Source: Patescibacteria group bacterium
Lineage (GTDB): Bacteria > Patescibacteriota > Microgenomatia > 0-14-0-10-38-17
Assembly: GCA_050947035.1 (NCBI GenBank)
Contig: JBMNVW010000005.1
Location: forward strand, 1 to 63,475
Direction: 5' to 3'
DNA: 63,475 bases
Position numbers and translations under genes: made by a program. This document shows, in pieces, positions 4,713 through 54,856 of this stretch. The notes under the pieces are model-generated. The model did no database searches, was not told the DNA's origin, and saw only the letters and a program-made list of their open reading frames with translations. Every line of letters starts with the position of its first letter. Within the stretch, counting starts at the first letter, position 1.

Positions 4713-5991
4713 AATTATCGCTGTTGGCGCCCGAGAGATAATTGATTCTCGAGCCACTCCTACCATCGAAACAACCATCTTTTTAGATAATGATATTTTT
4801 GCTACTGCCTCTGTTCCTTCTGGCGCTTCCGTTGGCTCCCATGAAGCCCTAGAGTTGCGAGACGAGGATAAACAGCGCTATTTGGGCAAGGGAGTTTTAA
4901 AAGCTATTTATAACATAGAAAAGGTTATTGCTCCTAAAATTATTGGCCTAGATATAGGAGATCAGGAAAAAATTGATCAAACAATGATCGATTTAGATGG
5001 AACTAAAAATAAAAGCAATTTGGGCGCTAATGCTATTTTGTCTTGCTCTATCACGGCGGTTAAAGCCGCCGCCTTCCATTATCAACGTCACCTATTTGAA
5101 TATGTTTCCGAATTGGCAAAAAATTTTGACCTTAATATTCCTGATAATCAAAAAATGCCTGTTCCCGTTCTTAATTTGATCAACGGCGGCAAACACGGAG
5201 CGGGGAATTTAGAATTCCAAGAATTCCATATTGTTCCCTTGGGAATAAAGACTTTTGCCAATCAAGTTCGAGCAGCTGCCGAAATTTACAAACATGTTGA
5301 AATGGTTTTAACAGAAAACAAGGCTATTCATTCGGTCGGTGATGAGGGCGGTTTTGCTCCTAATCTTTTTACTAATCTTGACGCCCTAGAAGTAGTGGCT
5401 CGGGCCACTAATCGAGCCGGATATATTCTTCATAAAGATGTTTATTTAGGTCTTGATGTGGCGGCCGATTTTTTTTACAAAAAAGGTTATTACAATATTC
5501 GCGACCGAACCTCACCAATGCCTACTCAAGATTTTATTGCCTTTTATCGTCAATTAAGAGAACAATACCCTCTGCTTCTTCTGGAAGATCCTTTATACGA
5601 AGACGACTGGAAGGGTTGGAGTCGTCTAGCTCAAACTCTAGATCTAAACAAGGTTACTCTTGTAGGCGATGATCTTTTATGTACCAACCCGGAAAGAACC
5701 AAAAAAGCCATTCAAGAAAAATCTTGCAACGGCATTTTGGTTAAACCAAATCAGGTAGGAACTATTTCCGAAACCCTGAAAGTTATCAAGATGGCCAAGG
5801 AGGCTGGCTGGAAAACGGTTATTTCTCATCGCAGTGGTGAAACCGCTGATAATTTTATTGCCGACTTTGCTGTTGGTGTTGGTGGTGATTTCGTTAAATT
5901 TGGCGCTCCAGCTCGAGGAGAAAGAACAACAAAATATAATCGACTAATGAAAATTGAAGAAATTCTTAATAACAACCAAGCTAACCATTAA
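4705..5991 (+). CDS. eno: Enolase
   Basis: MAKIIAVGAREIIDSRATPTIE start, SVPSGASVGSHEALELRD, LVKPNQVGTISET and SHRSGETAD motifs. ATG at 4705 preferred over the upstream track start at 4675. Confidence 0.95.
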   Translation: MAKIIAVGAREIIDSRATPTIETTIFLDNDIFATASVPSGASVGSHEALELRDEDKQRYLGKGVLKAIYNIEKVIAPKIIGLDIGDQEKIDQTMIDLDGTKNKSNLGANAILSCSITAVKAAAFHYQRHLFEYVSELAKNFDLNIPDNQKMPVPVLNLINGGKHGAGNLEFQEFHIVPLGIKTFANQVRAAAEIYKHVEMVLTENKAIHSVGDEGGFAPNLFTNLDALEVVARATNRAGYILHKDVYLGLDVAADFFYKKGYYNIRDRTSPMPTQDFIAFYRQLREQYPLLLLEDPLYEDDWKGWSRLAQTLDLNKVTLVGDDLLCTNPERTKKAIQEKSCNGILVKPNQVGTISETLKVIKMAKEAGWKTVISHRSGETADNFIADFAVGVGGDFVKFGAPARGERTTKYNRLMKIEEILNNNQANH

Positions 5992-27366: not shown

Positions 27367-28734
27367 ATGGCAACTGAAAAAAGGCGTTTTCGCTTTTATT
27401 GGCACCTATCTTGGGAATTTCTAAAACGCCATCGAGCTATTTTTATTGGCCTGATTATTTTGGCCGGGTTAACATTTTTTTTAGATCTTAAGTTTAGTTT
27501 TTTTCAAAGGCAAACTTTGCGTCTTGGTCTGACCGGCCAATATAAAACCCACACCCTTCCTCAAGAAATAACCAAATTAATCAGCCAGGGACTAGTTGAG
27601 GTTAACCCTGACGGCAGCTTCTCTCCGGCGGCAGCTCGAGATTGGCAAATTAATAATGATGGTAAAGAATATATCTTTTGGCTTCGAGATGATCTGGTTT
27701 GGGATGATGGCCGATCACTAACAGCCGATGATATTAACTACTCTTATCAAGACTTATCCGTTACTGTTCAAGATAAAAACACCCTAATAATCAGACTAAA
27801 AGAAAAATTTTCTCCTCTTTTAACTCTTTTGTCCCGGCCTATTTTTAAAAAAAACTTGGTCGGCCTGGGTGGTAATTATCGAGCTAAAAAAATTACTTAC
27901 CAAGGCAGTTTTATTAATTCTATTAACCTTGAGCCAAAAAAAGATCAGCCATTTATAAAAATCATTTTTTATCCTGACGAAAAATCACTAAGAAACGCCT
28001 TTAAACTTGGAGAAATTGACATTGTTTGGGGGGTAGCCGATCCGGGCCAATTAGTTTATTATCCCAACATTAAAACTCATACCGAGCTGACTAGTCAACA
28101 ATACAACGCCATCTTTTTTAATCTTGATGATGATCTATTAGGCTTTAAGCCTTTACGCCAAGTTCTTTCTTATGCTACACCAAAACCTCAAGGTAAATCA
28201 CGAGCGAAGGGGCCAATTAGCCCTGATTCTTGGGCCTATAACGATTTTGTCAAAACTTATGACCTTGATTTAGTTCATGCTCGACAACTTTTGGAAGACA
28301 ACAAAGAAGAACTGCCTGAAGAAATTGAAATCACCTTAACCACCCTGCCTCATTTGCTTGAAATAGCGGAAAAAACTAAAAATTCTTGGGAAGAAGTTGG
28401 CATTAAAACTAACATTCAAGTGGTTAGCTTTATTCCCGACAATTTCCAGGCCCTATTAATTACCCAAAGTGTTCCTCAAGATCCAGACCAATATTGGTTT
28501 TGGCATTCTTCCCAAGTCCAAACTAACCTAACTCGTCTGGGTAATTTAAGAATTGATCAGCTATTAGAGGAGGGAAGACAAACTATGGATATTAAAGAAA
28601 GACGAGAGAAATATCTTGATTTTCAAAGGTTTTTATTAGAGGAGTCACCGGCCATATTTATTTCTTATCCCACTTATCACTACATTTACCGCCAGGGTTT
28701 TGAAAACGCCCAAATACCGTTATATAATAGGTAA
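27367..28734 (+). CDS. ABC-transporter substrate-binding protein, family 5 (peptide/nickel type), orphan
   Basis: 455 aa with an N-terminal TM/signal anchor and SBP_bac_5-like blocks (GLVEVNPDGSFSPAAARDW..DGKEYIFWLRDDLVWDDG..LTADD). No permease or ATPase genes adjacent. Confidence 0.7.
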   Translation: MATEKRRFRFYWHLSWEFLKRHRAIFIGLIILAGLTFFLDLKFSFFQRQTLRLGLTGQYKTHTLPQEITKLISQGLVEVNPDGSFSPAAARDWQINNDGKEYIFWLRDDLVWDDGRSLTADDINYSYQDLSVTVQDKNTLIIRLKEKFSPLLTLLSRPIFKKNLVGLGGNYRAKKITYQGSFINSINLEPKKDQPFIKIIFYPDEKSLRNAFKLGEIDIVWGVADPGQLVYYPNIKTHTELTSQQYNAIFFNLDDDLLGFKPLRQVLSYATPKPQGKSRAKGPISPDSWAYNDFVKTYDLDLVHARQLLEDNKEELPEEIEITLTTLPHLLEIAEKTKNSWEEVGIKTNIQVVSFIPDNFQALLITQSVPQDPDQYWFWHSSQVQTNLTRLGNLRIDQLLEEGRQTMDIKERREKYLDFQRFLLEESPAIFISYPTYHYIYRQGFENAQIPLYNR

Positions 28735-28771: not shown

Positions 28772-28856
28772 GCCGAAGTGGCGGAACTGGCAGACGCGTA
28801 CGGTTCAGGGCCGTATGGACTCTAAGTCCATGTGGGTTCAATTCCCACCTTCGGCA
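28772..28856 (+). tRNA. tRNA-Leu(CAG)
   Basis: Cloverleaf by hand: acceptor GCCGAAG/CTTCGGC, anticodon arm TACGG-TTCAGGG-CCGTA, long variable arm GGAC..GTCC, T-arm GTGGG-TTCAATT-CCCAC. CCA is not encoded. Confidence 0.9.
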
Positions 28857-28878
28857 CACTACATTATAATAAACTATT

Positions 28879-29055
28879 GAGCGGACGTGTCCCGCCTAAA
28901 ACGGCGGGCAGGTGGAACTTGAAGCGAAGTGAAATCCGCCTATAATCGCAGCATAAGGCGTGAGTGAATAACTCCCCAAAGCCGCATGCTAAGATATGGC
29001 GGAGGCAAAAAATAAAGCTTTAGTTGGTATTTAACAAATTATCGAGCGGACGTGT
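28879..29055 (+). other. 12-nt direct repeat (5' end of tRNA-Leu(GAG)) bracketing a 153-nt GC-rich structured spacer
   Basis: GAGCGGACGTGT occurs at 28879-28890 and 29044-29055. The spacer holds hairpins CCCGCC-TAAAAC-GGCGGG and GGTGGA..TCCGCC, plus GGCGGA able to compete for TCCGCC. Confidence 0.6.
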
Positions 29056-29132
29056 TGGAACTGGCAGACAAGCAAGCTTGAGGAGCTTGTGGGCGCAAGC
29101 CCGTGGAGGTTCAAATCCTCTCGTCCGCACCA
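29046..29132 (+). tRNA. tRNA-Leu(GAG), CCA encoded
   Basis: Acceptor GCGGACG/CGTCCGC, anticodon arm CAAGC-TTGAGGA-GCTTG, variable arm GGGC..GCCC, T-arm GGAGG-TTCAAAT-CCTCT, then ACCA. Confidence 0.9.
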
Positions 29133-29267
29133 GAAAAGAGAGGATGCAGAACCTCCAAAAAAAATTCTGATCTTGGAGATTTTAACCGACAGTCGTGCTG
29201 TTGGTATACCAGTAGACGAGGGGAAAAAGACGGTTCGTGTCGTCTTCAAATCCTCTCGTCCGCACCA
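29133..29267 (+). repeat. tRNA-linked element, copy A (ends in a 23-nt duplicate of the tRNA-Leu(GAG) 3' end)
   Basis: Hairpin GAGG-ATGCAGAA-CCTC mimics the Leu T-stem. Conserved blocks AAAATTCTGAT, GACAGTCGTGCTGTT and GACGGTTCGTGTCGTC follow. It ends with TTCAAATCCTCTCGTCCGCACCA (29245-29267), identical to 29110-29132. Confidence 0.75.
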
Positions 29268-29282
29268 TTTATTTTATTGTTT

Positions 29283-29356
29283 GGATCCGTAGCTCAGTTG
29301 GCTAGAGCGCCCGGTTTACATCCGGAAGGTCACAGGTTCAAGTCCTGTCGGATCCA
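29283..29356 (+). tRNA. tRNA-Val(TAC)
   Basis: Acceptor GGATCCG/CGGATCC, D-arm AGCTCAGTTGGCTAGAGC, anticodon loop TTTACAT, T-arm ACAGG-TTCAAGT-CCTGT. Confidence 0.9.
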
Positions 29357-29382
29357 CAAAACATGATAAAATAGGATTGTTT

Positions 29383-29455
29383 GCCAGGGTAGCCAAGGTG
29401 GTCACGGCGCGTGTCTGAAAAACATGAGATCCCGGCTCAACTCCGGGCCCTGGCA
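29383..29455 (+). tRNA. tRNA-Phe(GAA) with an atypical T-loop
   Basis: Acceptor GCCAGGG/CCCTGGC, anticodon arm CGTGT-CTGAAAA-ACATG, T-arm CCCGG-CTCAACT-CCGGG (C instead of T at loop position 1). Confidence 0.75.
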
Positions 29456-29464
29456 CTTATTTTT

Positions 29465-29536
29465 GCGGCGGTAGTTCAGTGGTAGAATACCTCCTTGCCA
29501 AGGAGAAGGTCGCCGGTTCAAGTCCGGTCCGCCGCT
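29465..29536 (+). tRNA. tRNA-Gly(GCC)
   Basis: Acceptor GCGGCGG/CCGCCGC, anticodon loop TTGCCAA, T-arm GCCGG-TTCAAGT-CCGGT. Confidence 0.9.
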
Positions 29537-29626
29537 CAAAAAATATCAGCGCCAAGTCAGACTTGGCTACTCCAAACAAAGAAATAGCGAACTTTAGTTC
29601 GCGCCAAAAAAATTTTCTTTAATTAT

Positions 29627-29698
29627 TGGGGAGTAGTGTAATGGTAACACGCCAGTCTTTGGAACTGGTTACTCTAGGTTCGAATCCTAGCTCCCCAA
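29627..29698 (+). tRNA. tRNA-Gln(TTG)
   Basis: Acceptor TGGGGAG/CTCCCCA (U1-A72 as in bacterial Gln), anticodon arm CCAGT-CTTTGGA-ACTGG, T-arm CTAGG-TTCGAAT-CCTAG. Confidence 0.9.
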
Positions 29699-29827
29699 CA
29701 TTAAGCTAGGTGAGAACCTAGTAAAAATTCTGATTAACAGAATAACAAAAGACAACCGTGCTGTTATTACACCAACCAACAAGGTAAGAAAGCGGTTCGT
29801 GTCGTCTTCGAATCCTAGCTCCCCAAC
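29699..29827 (+). repeat. tRNA-linked element, copy B (ends in a 21-nt duplicate of the tRNA-Gln 3' end)
   Basis: Hairpin CTAGG-TGAGAA-CCTAG mimics the Gln T-stem. Conserved blocks AAAATTCTGAT, GACAACCGTGCTGTT and AGCGGTTCGTGTCGTC follow. It ends with TTCGAATCCTAGCTCCCCAAC (29807-29827), a duplicate of the tRNA-Gln sequence from T-loop to 3' end. Confidence 0.75.
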
Positions 29828-29852
29828 TAAAAGGCAGGGGAGGCCAGAATTC

Positions 29853-30627
29853 CCACCTTCAAGGTGGTTTTTACCTTGAACCTTATTAGCAACCTTGCTA
29901 AACTAAAACTGTGCCGGGAAGAAAGATAGTTTTAGCTACAGATCAGGTTTACCATCTTTTTAATCGGGGTAATTCATCTCAACCCACTTTCTTGAATGCT
30001 TTTGATTATCGTCGTTTTTTAAAGACAATTAATTTTTACCGTTTCGCTCCTCATTCAGCTAAGCTTTTCCAATTTTTAGAGTTTTCAGAAAAAAGAAGAA
30101 AAGAATATTTTGATAACCTTAAGAAGAAGACAAAAGAATTAGTTTCCATCTTTTCTTTTTGTCTGATGCCCAATCACTATCATCTTTTAGTCAGACAAGA
30201 AGTAGAAAATGGTATTTCCAAGTTCATGTCTCAACTGCAAAACAGCTATACCAAATATTTCAATCTTAAAAGAAAAAAAGCCGGTTCTTTATTCCAGGGC
30301 CATTTTAAAGCGGTCAGAGCAGAGACAGATGAGCAATTAATCCACCTTTCAAGGTATATTCATCTTAACCCCTATTCTTCATATGTAGTAAAATTAATTA
30401 ATAATCTAGAGACTTATCCCTGGTCATCCTTACCTGATTATCTGGGAGAAAAAAAACATTTTTTTGTTAAAAAGAAACCGATTCTCGATTTATTCAAAAA
30501 CAAAAAAGACTACCAGAAATTTGTTTTTGATCAAGCAGACTATCAAAGAGAATTAGAAAAGATTAAACACTTAACTTGGGAGTGATAGAATTAACAAGGT
30601 GTAAAGAGTAAACCACCTTGAAGGTGG
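29853..30627 (+). mobile_element. IS200/RAYT-type unit: HUH Y1 transposase gene flanked by inverted REP-like hairpins
   Basis: CCACCTTCAAGGTGG (29853-29867) and CCACCTTGAAGGTGG (30613-30627) sit in inverted orientation around the single gene 29911-30585. Their flanks match as reverse complements (AAACCACCTTGAAGGTGG). Confidence 0.7.
29911..30585 (+). CDS. REP-associated tyrosine transposase (RAYT / IS200-like Y1 HUH transposase, COG1943-like)
   Basis: 224 aa with YHLFNRGN, the HUH motif in LMPNHYHLLV, GSLFQGHFK and the catalytic Tyr context SRYIHLNPY. GTG start. Confidence 0.8.
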   Translation: MPGRKIVLATDQVYHLFNRGNSSQPTFLNAFDYRRFLKTINFYRFAPHSAKLFQFLEFSEKRRKEYFDNLKKKTKELVSIFSFCLMPNHYHLLVRQEVENGISKFMSQLQNSYTKYFNLKRKKAGSLFQGHFKAVRAETDEQLIHLSRYIHLNPYSSYVVKLINNLETYPWSSLPDYLGEKKHFFVKKKPILDLFKNKKDYQKFVFDQADYQRELEKIKHLTWE

Positions 30628-35200: not shown

Positions 35201-35215
35201 CCACCTTGAAGGTGG
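35201..35215. repeat. Solo REP-like hairpin CCACCTTGAAGGTGG
   Basis: Identical to the hairpin at 30613-30627, including the AAA 5' flank, and in the same orientation. Confidence 0.7.
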
Positions 35216-43718: not shown

Positions 43719-43770
43719 CCAAGTAATTAAAGCTAGTTTTCCTATAGTTTTGAATCTTTAAAAGGACCTT

Positions 43771-43967
43771 GTCAACCTTGGCTGTCTTAACTTTGGCCTG
43801 GGACAATATTTAGTTATCGAGGATAATAATTTAAAATTTTACGATTTAGATTATTAGTTCAAAAAAGAGAGGATTTCTCGCTTAAATACTTTACCGTATT
43901 TAAATAGTTGGGCATAAATTATTTTTACAAAATTTTTCACAATTTTAAAAAGGAGAGTCCTTAAAAA
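43771..43967 (+). repeat. Module copy A: last ~90 nt of a metallophosphoesterase gene plus ~110 nt of downstream sequence
   Basis: Aligns with 54544-54740. The gene fragment still reads in frame as VNLGCLNFGLGQYLVIEDNNLKFYDLDY*. The block TTAAATACTTTACCGTATTTAAATAGTTGGGCATAAATTA is identical in all three copies. Confidence 0.85.
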
Positions 43968-44153
43968 TATGGGCTAGTGGAAGATAAACGCTATTGTCTT
44001 GGCCCACAAAGACGAGATAAACACGTCACCCTTTTTAGGCTTTGGTAATGTATCCGACGTTTTTATTAAACTTATAATTTTATAATGACTTTGTTCCCCC
44101 CAAGAAAATTCAAGACACCCCTAATTTGCTAAAATAAACCCAATAACCAAACC

Positions 44154-48664: not shown

Positions 48665-48975
48665 CGAAAAATATAACCAGAAAATTGAGACCAAGGCCAA
48701 AAAATATTTAAGAAGAAACCAAATCTTGGTTTGCGGCCATACTCACCTGGCCCAAAAAGACCCCAAGAAAGGTTTTATCAACCTTGGCTGTCTTAATTTT
48801 GGCCTAGGGCAATATTTAGTTGTCGAGGATAATAATTTAAAATTTTACGATTCGGATTATTAGTTTAGAAAAAAAGAGGGGATGCTTATTTAAATACTTT
48901 ACCGTATTTAAATAGTTGGGCATAAATTACTTTCACAAAATTTTTCACAATTTCAAAAAGGAGAATCCTTAAAAA
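48665..48975 (+). repeat. Module copy B: last ~190 nt of a metallophosphoesterase gene plus downstream sequence
   Basis: Aligns with 54428-54740. The fragment reads ..CGHTHLAQKDPKKGFINLGCLNFGLGQYLVVEDNNLKFYDSDY*. Most differences from copy C are synonymous or conservative. Confidence 0.85.
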
Positions 48976-49135
48976 TAAATACCTTATCTTTTACAACACT
49001 AAAAGAGTCCATCAAAGTCTAGACTATGAGACACCGATGGACTATATCATCAAAAAGGGAGGAATGTCGAATATGTATCGAGCCCGTACATAAGCTTTAA
49101 TTTATGACATATTTGTGATAGAATGTGTTTCACAT

Positions 49136-53985: not shown

Positions 53986-54630
53986 ATGAAAACCCTAATT
54001 TTTTCCGATACTCATTTAACCAATAAGCCCGACCCCAAACGAATGGCTTTTTTGAAAAAGATTATCAACGAGGCTGACCGGGTAATTATCAACGGCGATT
54101 TTTGGGATGGAGTGTTTATTAGTTTTGATCAGTTTTTATCTTCCCCTTGGCAAGAATTATTTCCTTTATTAAAAAAGAAAAATACCATTTATGTTTATGG
54201 CAACCACGATAAAAAAGAGCGTTGCGACGAAAGAGTAAGCCTGTTTTCCAACCACCAGGCCGAAAGCTATTCTTTATCTCTAGGAAACAAAACCTTGCTA
54301 ATTACTCACGGCCACAACTTAAATTTATCCTTTACCAAAACAGTCAAAATCTTAAAAATCTGCCGGCCACTATTCCGCCTTGATCATTTTTTGGCCAATA
54401 TTTTGGGCCGAAAATATCTTTATTGGTCAAGAAAAAAATATAATCAGGAAGTTGAAAAAGAAGCCAAAAAACTTTCCCAAAGAAACCAAATTTTGGTTTG
54501 CGGCCATACTCACCTGGCCCAAAAAGACCCCAAGAAGGGTTTTATCAACCTTGGTTGTCTTAATTTCGGCTTAGGGCAATATTTGATTGTTGAAGATAAT
54601 AGCCTAAAATTTTATGATTTAGACTATTAG
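53986..54630 (+). CDS. Calcineurin-like metallophosphoesterase (LpxH/YfcE-like)
   Basis: IFSDTHL, NGDFWD, YGNHD, ITHGH and CGHTH motifs. This is the only full-length copy of the gene whose 3' end is repeated at 43.8 and 48.7 kb. Confidence 0.8.
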   Translation: MKTLIFSDTHLTNKPDPKRMAFLKKIINEADRVIINGDFWDGVFISFDQFLSSPWQELFPLLKKKNTIYVYGNHDKKERCDERVSLFSNHQAESYSLSLGNKTLLITHGHNLNLSFTKTVKILKICRPLFRLDHFLANILGRKYLYWSRKKYNQEVEKEAKKLSQRNQILVCGHTHLAQKDPKKGFINLGCLNFGLGQYLIVEDNSLKFYDLDY

Positions 54631-54740
54631 TTTAGAAAAAAAGAGGATTTCTCGCTTAAATACTTTACCGTATTTAAATAGTTGGGCATAAATTATTTTC
54701 ACAAAATTTTTCACAGCCTCAAAGGGGGAATCTTTAAAAA
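54428..54740 (+). repeat. Module copy C (reference copy: 3' part of the intact metallophosphoesterase gene plus ~110 nt downstream)
   Basis: Homology to copies A and B ends at the same point in all three, just after TTAAAAA (43967, 48975, 54740). Confidence 0.85.
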
Positions 54741-54856
54741 CACTTCAATTTTTCACTTCATTCCTCAAGCCCTAAAACCTAGCTACCTAACCATCTAGCG
54801 AAAGGCTTTTTGTTCCGTTACAATAAAACTAATCCTAAAATTTGAGTTCCTGCCTG

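Follow-up and report, generated by a model that had tools for sequence, protein, structure and literature searches.

Two homologous elements of about 110 nucleotides with host-matched ends behind tRNA-Leu and tRNA-Gln genes of an uncultured Microgenomates bacterium

Cis-mobilisable elements (CIMEs), exemplified by the ICESt1/CIME elements of Streptococcus thermophilus, are gene-poor derivatives of integrative and conjugative elements (ICEs) that are flanked by attachment (att) sites and undergo tandem accretion, a feature typical of site-specific integration. Other mobile elements are programmed by guides, through guide/target pairing in IS608, the bridge RNA of IS110 or the pairing of exon- and intron-binding sites (EBS/IBS) in group II introns. 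Mycobacteriophage Ms6 carries an attP core of 26 bases that corresponds to tRNA-Ala's 3' end, exchanges strands in the T-loop, which is 7 bases long, and can be redirected to other tRNAs through editing of this core (PMC1762012). Here, we describe two related elements that lie directly behind the genes of tRNA-Leu(GAG) and tRNA-Gln(UUG) in a 63,475-nt stretch of contig JBMNVW010000005.1 (hereafter the window, taken at its full length). T-loop integration as in Ms6 is the closest known mechanism and CIMEs are the closest non-autonomous att-flanked elements; no description of elements of this kind was found in the literature. The window is cellular DNA from an uncultured member of the Microgenomates/Candidatus Shapirobacteria, within the candidate phyla radiation (CPR).

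Each element separates its host gene from an exact second copy of the 3' end of that gene (Table 1). The repeat covers tRNA positions 54-76 at tRNA-Leu (23 nt, TTCAAATCCTCTCGTCCGCACCA) and positions 54-74 at tRNA-Gln (21 nt, TTCGAATCCTAGCTCCCCAAC), and the minimal repeat of 21 nt, from position 54 to position 74, is identical in extent at both tRNAs. Between the two copies lie bodies with three shared blocks, and the 17-mer CGGTTCGTGTCGTCTTC occurs in the window at the two element sites alone, for 0.04 occurrences expected. Local alignment of the Leu and Gln cores scored 46 compared with 14.3 ± 2.2 in 2000 dinucleotide shuffles, none of which reached this score (z = 14.4). Chance similarity is ruled out by these two results, and the cores are homologous. 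A reading of this DNA made earlier from the sequence alone had placed the elements, their shared blocks, their host-matched ends and the exact 3' duplicates of 23 and 21 nt where we find them, and the shared blocks on which it relied hold up in a proper alignment. We also considered a degenerate tandem tRNA duplicate or pseudogene, and rejected it: in local alignments of the bodies with all six tRNAs of the cluster, z did not exceed 2.3. Since the bodies align to none of the six tRNAs, they are not decayed tRNA copies. In the same vein, the GGTTCG of block 3, in which a likeness to a T-arm had been seen, belongs to a small hairpin, and the alignment scores show no tRNA derivation of the bodies. 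The ends of the element (GAAAAGAGAGG... and ...GTGTCGTC) are not inverted repeats; the right end, formed by block 3, is near-invariant and the left end is host-specific.

This left end is a hairpin that had rightly been recognised as matched to the host, but it is not the copy of the T-stem that was proposed: it is the reverse complement of the T-arm. The T-arm of tRNA-Leu, GGAGG-TTCAAAT-CCTCT, carries a G49.U65 pair. In the corresponding Leu hairpin (G-AGAGG-loop-CCTCC), an A.C mismatch stands where the T-arm has G49.U65, and the G before the hairpin complements C66. Because the G.U pair is turned into A.C and the preceding G complements C66, both hairpin strands complement the sense strand of the tRNA perfectly, one at positions 61-66 and the other at positions 49-53. 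The hairpin loops (TGAAGAA or ATGCAGAA in the Leu copy, ATGAGAA or TGAGAA in the Gln copy) are closer to each other than to the T-loops, and the hairpin is therefore a homologous part of the element whose stems have been re-matched to each host. Together, the T-loop with positions 61-66 and the inverted copy form a dyad of 39-47 bp, whose centre falls at position 73/74, where the 21-nt repeat ends.

Table 1. Positions in the window of the two elements, their host genes and the neighbouring RAYT gene.
Feature	Position	Strand	Basis or remark
Host tRNA-Leu(GAG)	29046-29132	+	ARAGORN, Rfam; part from T-loop to CCA, 29110-29132, is repeat copy 1
Leu element body	29133-29244	+	112 nt, non-coding; aligned to Gln element; orthologues in L022, L032/L033, L034, L038
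Leu left hairpin, GAGAGG-ATGCAGAA-CCTCC	29138-29156	+	Reverse complement of Leu T-arm (positions 48/49-66)
Block 1, AAAAATTCTGAT	Leu 29160-29171; Gln 29723-29734	+	Repeat comparison, alignment of copies
Block 2, GACAnnCGTGCTGTT	Leu, from 29188; Gln, from 29751 (block 29751-29765)		Shared sequence
Block-2 hairpin, CCGACAG-TCGTG-CTGTTGG, includes GACAGTCGTGCTGTT	Leu 29186-29204	+	Predicted fold
Second internal complement of tRNA-Leu positions 60-69, GACGAGGGGA	29216-29225	+	Leu copies only; variants among relatives
Block 3, CGGTTCGTGTCGTC	Leu 29231-29244; Gln 29793-29806	+	Right end of element, adjoins repeated T-loop
Leu repeat copy 2	29245-29267	+	Repeat comparison, exact
Host tRNA-Gln(UUG)	29627-29699	+	ARAGORN, Rfam; 29679-29699 is repeat copy 1
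Gln element body	29700-29806	+	107 nt; aligned to Leu element
Gln left hairpin, GCTAGG-TGAGAA-CCTAG	29705-29721	+	Reverse complement of Gln T-arm
Gln repeat copy 2	29807-29827	+	Repeat comparison, exact
RAYT	29911-30585		Y1_Tnp, E = 1.7e-10

The locus was recovered in eight further lineages by a metagenome pattern scan and by look-ups of homologues of the family-5 solute-binding protein (SBP) encoded next to the tRNA cluster; the percentages that follow give the amino-acid identity of the SBP with that of the window, and for L022 alone the identity of the DNA over the locus. Both elements are present in L022 (~98%) and in L032/L033 (80%), and the Leu element is present in L038 (92%), on a contig without the Gln gene, and in L034 (ENA k141_1188940), whose SBP is identical to that of L032. 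The Leu site is empty in L041 (78%), where a serine-recombinase island abuts tRNA-Gln, in L035 (75%), where the Gln site is empty too, and in L046 (55%); L030 (91%) is unscorable, its contig ending inside tRNA-Leu(GAG). Where the Leu site is empty, 15-19 nt (15 nt in L035) separate the tRNA from tRNA-Val, and at the empty Gln site of L035 an A-run leads from tRNA-Gln to the next gene. Since these sites are empty in related genomes, the elements are insertions, as had been suspected. The pattern of presence and absence fits a single old insertion at each site, in the ancestor of the clade of at least 80% identity, followed by vertical inheritance, and it does not demonstrate ongoing transposition. 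Signs of later activity are found in tandem units and in the varying extent of the Gln repeat. A second, non-identical unit begins directly after the repeat in L034, a second hairpin and a decayed block 1 follow the Gln element in L022, and the Gln repeat measures 21 nt in the window and extends into the trailer in two relatives, to about 36 nt in L032 and to 47 nt in L022, where it includes the second hairpin copy. Altogether, the elements are real, conserved and tRNA-targeted, and more than a duplication artefact; our main reservation is that only two sites in one clade are known.

Two further contigs deserve mention with these relatives. The L034 contig matches the 80% lineage in the part with SBP and Leu(CAG) and the window/L022 lineage in the gene of Leu(GAG) and its element, and is either a recombinant or an assembly chimera at conserved tRNAs. 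Another contig (L012, Logan SRR31066156), identical to the window, stops at 29122, within the repeated tRNA-Leu 3' segment, which may reflect strain variation at the Leu site.

The reading that we tentatively favour is that of a miniature, non-autonomous integrative element, reduced to its att site and targeting the T-arm and 3' end of tRNA genes. Homologous cores, host-matched ends, empty sites, tandem accretion and conservation are directly observed; beyond them, we infer a circular intermediate, a recombinase and a crossover point. A gene-less attachment site with short arms would enter at the T-arm/3' end of the tRNA gene and leave the tRNA intact, owing to the copy of positions 54-74/76 at its far end. 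In the circular form, the recombination site would be the host-matched dyad, with the T-loop and the 3' strand of the T-stem (TTCRAAT-CCTxxC) as its left half and the inverted copy (the hairpin) as its right half, 13-15 bp apart. A recombinase supplied in trans would exchange strands at the centre of the dyad (73/74) or, like the integrase of Ms6, in the T-loop, and blocks 1-3 may serve as arm or accessory sites.

This att-only element is supported by the span of the repeat, from the T-loop to the tRNA's 3' end, as T-loop integration would give, by the clean empty sites of L035, L041 and L046, and by the tandem units of L034 and L022-Gln. An asymmetry at the L038 junction points in the same direction: the tRNA-side copy ends in CGCACCA/GGAAAG, and the distal copy ends in CGCAC/TATTC and resembles the CCA-less empty sites of L041, L035 and L046, as would be expected were the distal copy the displaced native end. 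The equal minimal repeat at both tRNAs, the dyad centred where this repeat ends, the L038 junction, the near-invariant block 3 and the host-specific left end agree better with a site of site-specific recombination than with a transposon that brings termini of its own. Besides, the locus may be an integration hot spot, with the island of L041, an insert behind tRNA-Gly in L022 and a mirror-image family at the 5' end of tRNA-Leu genes (see below). Like the T-loop elements of tyrosine integrases such as that of Ms6, the elements sit directly 3' of an intact tRNA within a direct repeat from T-loop to 3' end, and empty sites exist; unlike them, they measure about 110 nt, contain no integrase or other gene (107-112 nt, no ORF), have no parent that we could find and carry an extra inverted copy of the host T-arm. 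Like CIMEs, they are non-autonomous, have attL/attR-like repeats at a tRNA-type site and can occur in tandem; whereas CIMEs span kilobases and can be traced to an ICE parent that shares their att sites, the whole element here is roughly as long as an attP site and has no known parent.

A number of points weigh against such an element. A protein of fixed specificity cannot explain how the stems were re-matched to GAGG in one case and CTAGG in the other while the loop was kept. Inverted half-sites around a 7-bp overlap are not found at both junctions: at the distal one (GTCGTC-TTCAAAT-CCTCT), a tyrosine-recombinase core predicts an inverted half-site like the T-stem, and GTCGTC is present instead, an element-specific left half-site unlike GGAGG or CTAGG. 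For an att site of a large serine recombinase, which would be an imperfect dyad of about 40-50 bp with a central crossover, the observations point both ways: the dyad measures 39-47 bp and is centred on position 73/74, and the L041 island joins tRNA-Gln at about position 73, but the L041 junction and the L032 spacer differ; the latter, 22 nt instead of 13 in L032-Gln, breaks the proposed geometry of the dyad. The serine-recombinase island of L041, which sits at the 3' end of tRNA-Gln at about position 73 and leaves the gene altered after position 72, was rejected as the parent, as its junction sequence differs and its far end lies beyond the contig. A Pfam scan of 51 of the 54 predicted window ORFs of at least 110 aa found RAYT as the only recombinase-type protein, in line with what had been said before, and no integrase. 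Neither a recombinase nor a circular form nor an autonomous partner sharing the arms was found, and the conservation of the elements suggests a present function rather than parasitism. Finally, an occurrence at two sites in a single clade, within the same operon and 560 nt from each other, is a poor record for a mobile element.

This narrow distribution emerges from several searches. Block 3 combined with a generic T-loop pattern gave 7 chance matches and no real copy in 596 Gb of genome representatives, and 16 chance matches plus one orthologous contig (L022) in JGI metagenomes. Four scans of viral contigs (one each for block 3, for the 3' piece of Leu, for that of Gln and for blocks 2 and 3 together) revealed no counterpart, the matches being chance ones, one phage tRNA-Leu gene and one conserved unrelated phage sequence. 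An nhmmer profile of the core, run over all retrieved loci (0.77 Mb), returned the known copies alone. Further copies behind other tRNAs, for which the sequence-only reading had suggested a search, were absent from the genome and metagenome scans, which leave two sites in one clade. In the viral, genome and metagenome scans and the 0.77 Mb of loci, no autonomous relative with the same att arms was found, at a sensitivity limited by the requirement for exact blocks. Since the pattern searches demanded such exact blocks, diverged members could have been missed.

In the main rival reading, which we consider only slightly less likely, the elements are a conserved structured RNA that is transcribed together with the tRNA operon; having originated a single time behind one of the tRNAs and been copied from there to the second, it would now be kept for a role at the RNA level. 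It could assist the folding or processing of pre-tRNAs, act as a decoy or be a substrate of 3'-end enzymes; its 5' hairpin is a perfect antisense match to the two strands of the T-arm next to it, and its 3' end mimics the 3' half of the tRNA. Such a role would be consistent with the conservation between the window and L032, where the orthologous elements are 86% (Leu) and 83% (Gln) identical and the duplicated tRNA pieces show zero substitutions, compared with 76% identity for the SBP gene and 55% at its third-codon positions. Both elements are also predicted to lie within a transcription unit, the tRNA cluster and the elements being bracketed by a site at 28700 that strongly resembles a promoter and by a terminator-like hairpin at 29853; no promoter is predicted within the element. 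Both elements fold much more stably than shuffles, with z = -3.7 for each on the + strand; on the - strand, folding was weaker for Gln (z = -1.5), and similar on both strands for Leu. The stems of the left hairpin are invariant in four Leu lineages, with variable loop and flanks, and in L032-Gln the local hairpin is retained through a G.U pair and a register shift while the match to the host decays. In the block-2 hairpin, L032 shows one compensatory change from C-G to T-A, and RNAalifold closes the element by pairing the 5' strand of the hairpin with the T-stem 3' strand of the repeat, a helix with two pairs changed on both sides. In the minimum free energy fold of the Leu element, GACGAGGGGA at 29216-29225 pairs with 29250-29259.

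However, no single consensus fold is supported. Block 1 has one set of pairing partners in the Leu copies and another in the Gln copies, L032-Gln has a disrupted block-2 hairpin, the RNAalifold consensus is weak (folding term -12.2, covariation term only -0.75) and the covarying pairs are confounded with host identity. Moreover, the exact host copy of 21-23 nt implies a copying mechanism rather than convergent selection, and relatives live without the elements. A known RNA family was rejected: with Rfam 15 and ARAGORN only the six tRNAs pass, no Rfam match was obtained over the element bodies at gathering thresholds or at E <= 10, and none reaches half of its family's gathering score, in agreement with the sequence-only reading, which had recognised no described family. 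Like RNAs linked to tRNAs (the tRNA-like domain of tmRNA, mascRNA-type 3'-end formation), the elements have a tRNA-like 3' sequence and could use tRNA-processing enzymes; unlike them, they hold the 3' strand of the acceptor and T-arm alone, with no conserved partner strand apart from a partial one in the Leu copies.

We regard as unlikely a one-off local rearrangement by template switching or microhomology-mediated repair between the near-identical T-loops (AGGTTCRAATCCT), with no dedicated machinery, by which the core would have been copied from one tRNA trailer to another and re-entry at the T-loop would automatically yield a host-matched repeat. The two known copies do lie 560 nt apart in the same operon of one clade, and no recombinase was found. 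Furthermore, the repeat is bounded on its left by the T-loop, which these tRNAs share as their longest microhomology, its right boundary varies by lineage (21, about 36 and 47 nt), and direct and inverted copies side by side resemble complex template-switch products. Such an event nevertheless leaves unexplained the origin of the first copy, the homologous hairpin loops with host-specific stems, the strong conservation and the recurrence of unrelated inserts at tRNA ends in this locus, namely the L022 Gly insert and the 5' family.

That the stems are re-matched to each host speaks for recognition through base pairing and against a protein whose specificity is fixed. An element that recognises its tRNA in this way, as a small programmable unit aimed at tRNA genes or at tRNAs, nonetheless seems to us rather improbable. 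The hairpin strands would pair with the T-arm (positions 61-66 and 49-53), leaving the T-loop unpaired opposite the conserved loop of 6-8 nt, and the 3' end would provide a sense copy of 21-23 nt of the tRNA. The unit might then be a guide-like module for a trans-acting recombinase or transposase, or an RNA docking onto its own tRNA at the T-arm, and retargeting from Leu to Gln would take place through a stem swap that retains loop and core. Judged by sequence complementarity alone, the elements resemble guide-programmed mobile elements in that short segments complementary to the target change with it and the rest is conserved; unlike them, they have no transposase, recombinase or intron-encoded protein, and their geometry and long direct repeat fit none of these systems.

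Doubtful to a similar degree are decayed scars of larger prophages or genomic islands, whose interior would have been deleted and whose attL and attR arms fused. The direct repeats do resemble attL and attR, L041 has its serine-recombinase island at tRNA-Gln, and a variable segment of 5.6 kb follows the Gln repeat directly in the window and L032 and not in L022. This account requires, however, two independent deletions that leave the same ~110 nt, and it has to accommodate the conservation of the elements in streamlined genomes, which lies well above the neutral level; an island bearing these arms was seen in none of the relatives or viral contigs. As for the 5.6-kb segment, neither element parts nor the tRNA-Gln repeat bound it, and it was also rejected as cargo of the element.

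The last candidate, REP- or REPIN-like elements made or moved by the adjacent RAYT, a Y1 HUH transposase acting on single-stranded hairpins, is largely refuted and very improbable: the RAYT gene starts 84 nt past the Gln repeat in the window and L032, the elements contain hairpins and Y1 transposons recognise their targets partly through base pairing, but this RAYT is flanked by its own inverted REP palindromes (CCACCTT[C/G]AAGGTGG at 29853-29867, 30613-30627 and 35201-35215), which share no sequence with the element hairpins, Y1 elements produce no target duplication and have end hairpins that are alike, whereas here they differ, and L022 retains both elements while RAYT and the whole segment 29828-35464 are absent. 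Because the REPs are unrelated and L022 keeps the elements without RAYT, we reject a link between RAYT and the elements. Miniature inverted-repeat and palindrome-associated transposable elements (MITEs and PATEs), which derive from insertion sequences including IS200/IS605, are likewise small and non-coding, contain hairpins and are present or absent between genomes. The elements depart from them in having no terminal inverted repeats of their own, a repeat of 21-47 nt from a fixed tRNA position in place of a short target duplication of fixed size, ends that match the host and not the element, and two known loci instead of many dispersed copies. The three mechanisms initially offered, namely a small non-autonomous element inserting into T-loops, remnants of tRNA-targeting integrative elements and a structured RNA co-transcribed with the tRNA, all survive in modified form, and none is proven.

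If the elements are att-only mini-elements, a site-specific integration module can persist and spread as a gene-less parasite of ~130 bp in the very small genomes of CPR bacteria, whose tRNA operons would be marked as hot spots where recombination is active. If they are RNAs instead, a new class embedded in tRNA operons would emerge, with ends matched to the neighbouring tRNA and a bearing on pre-tRNA folding and processing where the RNA-processing machinery is reduced. Either way, a host-matched inverted copy of the T-arm with a conserved loop is a concrete and testable anatomy, which also explains odd or broken assemblies and annotations of such tRNA clusters.

The genes around the elements are uvrA, a transglutaminase-like gene, uvrC and the SBP gene, and the closest named SBP homologues belong to 'Microgenomates bacterium 39_6' and to metagenome-assembled genomes of Shapirobacteria. 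Six tRNA genes identified by ARAGORN and Rfam follow directly 3' of the SBP gene (28772-29699), in the order Leu(CAG), Leu(GAG), Val, Phe, Gly and Gln. The Gly-Gln spacer (29538-29626, 88 nt) contains two hairpins, GCCAAGTCAGACTTGGC and GCGAACTTTAGTTCGC, and is ~96% identical between the window and L032. Since L035 has an unrelated 53-nt sequence in its place, this spacer may be another insert or RNA.

Other mobile or variable DNA surrounds the cluster. The 5.6-kb segment 29828-35464, shared by the window and L032, encodes RAYT, an ASCH protein, an adenylate-kinase-like protein, a CYTH protein, GTP cyclohydrolase I and small ORFs, and L022 has 43 nt in its place. The left REP copy with its flank (29848-29860, AATTCCCACCTTC) shares 13 identical nt with the part of tRNA-Leu(CAG) between its T-loop and acceptor 3' strand, both included (28840-28852). 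The large-serine-recombinase island (Resolvase, Recombinase and Zn_ribbon_recom domains) lies at 5338-6633 in L041 and at 10884-12179 in L048. In L022, a different insert of ~115 nt lies behind tRNA-Gly(GCC) (~5290-5400, minus strand) and ends in an imperfect copy of the Gly T-arm and 3' end. The window does not have this insert, and two genomes that are ~98% identical thus clearly differ by an insertion polymorphism.

The mirror-image family is found 5' of tRNA-Leu genes in the window (28867-29055), L022, L030, L038 and L041. A copy of 10-17 nt of the host tRNA 5' end, with leader, is followed by a conserved body of ~150 nt and by the full tRNA; the body includes ...GGTGGAACTTGAAGCG...GAATCCGCC...GGCGGAGGCAGA... 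and a conserved promoter-like TTGAAG-N16-TATAAT. This family is host-matched to three different tRNA-Leu genes, occurs in tandem in L038 and is absent in L032 and L035. A GC-rich palindrome, CCCGCC-loop-GGCGGG(CAGG), is a recurrent nested insertion in loops of tRNA genes or fragments, at 28891-28912 in the window, in the T-loop of the pseudo-Gly of L022, at ~4454-4474 in L041 and at 5011-5117 in L042. In the relative L042/L045 (55% identity; 4959-5140), a 107-nt insert splits tRNA-Val(TAC) after position 37 of the anticodon loop and holds a complete second tRNA-Val(TAC), flanked by CCTGCCCGCC... and ...GGCAGGCGGG. In L046, which comes from another sample and has an SBP identical to that of L042/L045, tRNA-Val(TAC) is uninterrupted (4959-5033). 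Further along the window, a repeat of ~200-300 nt occurs in three copies that are 81-91% identical (43769-43969, 48667-48977 and 54434-54743), spaced by 5.0 and 5.8 kb.

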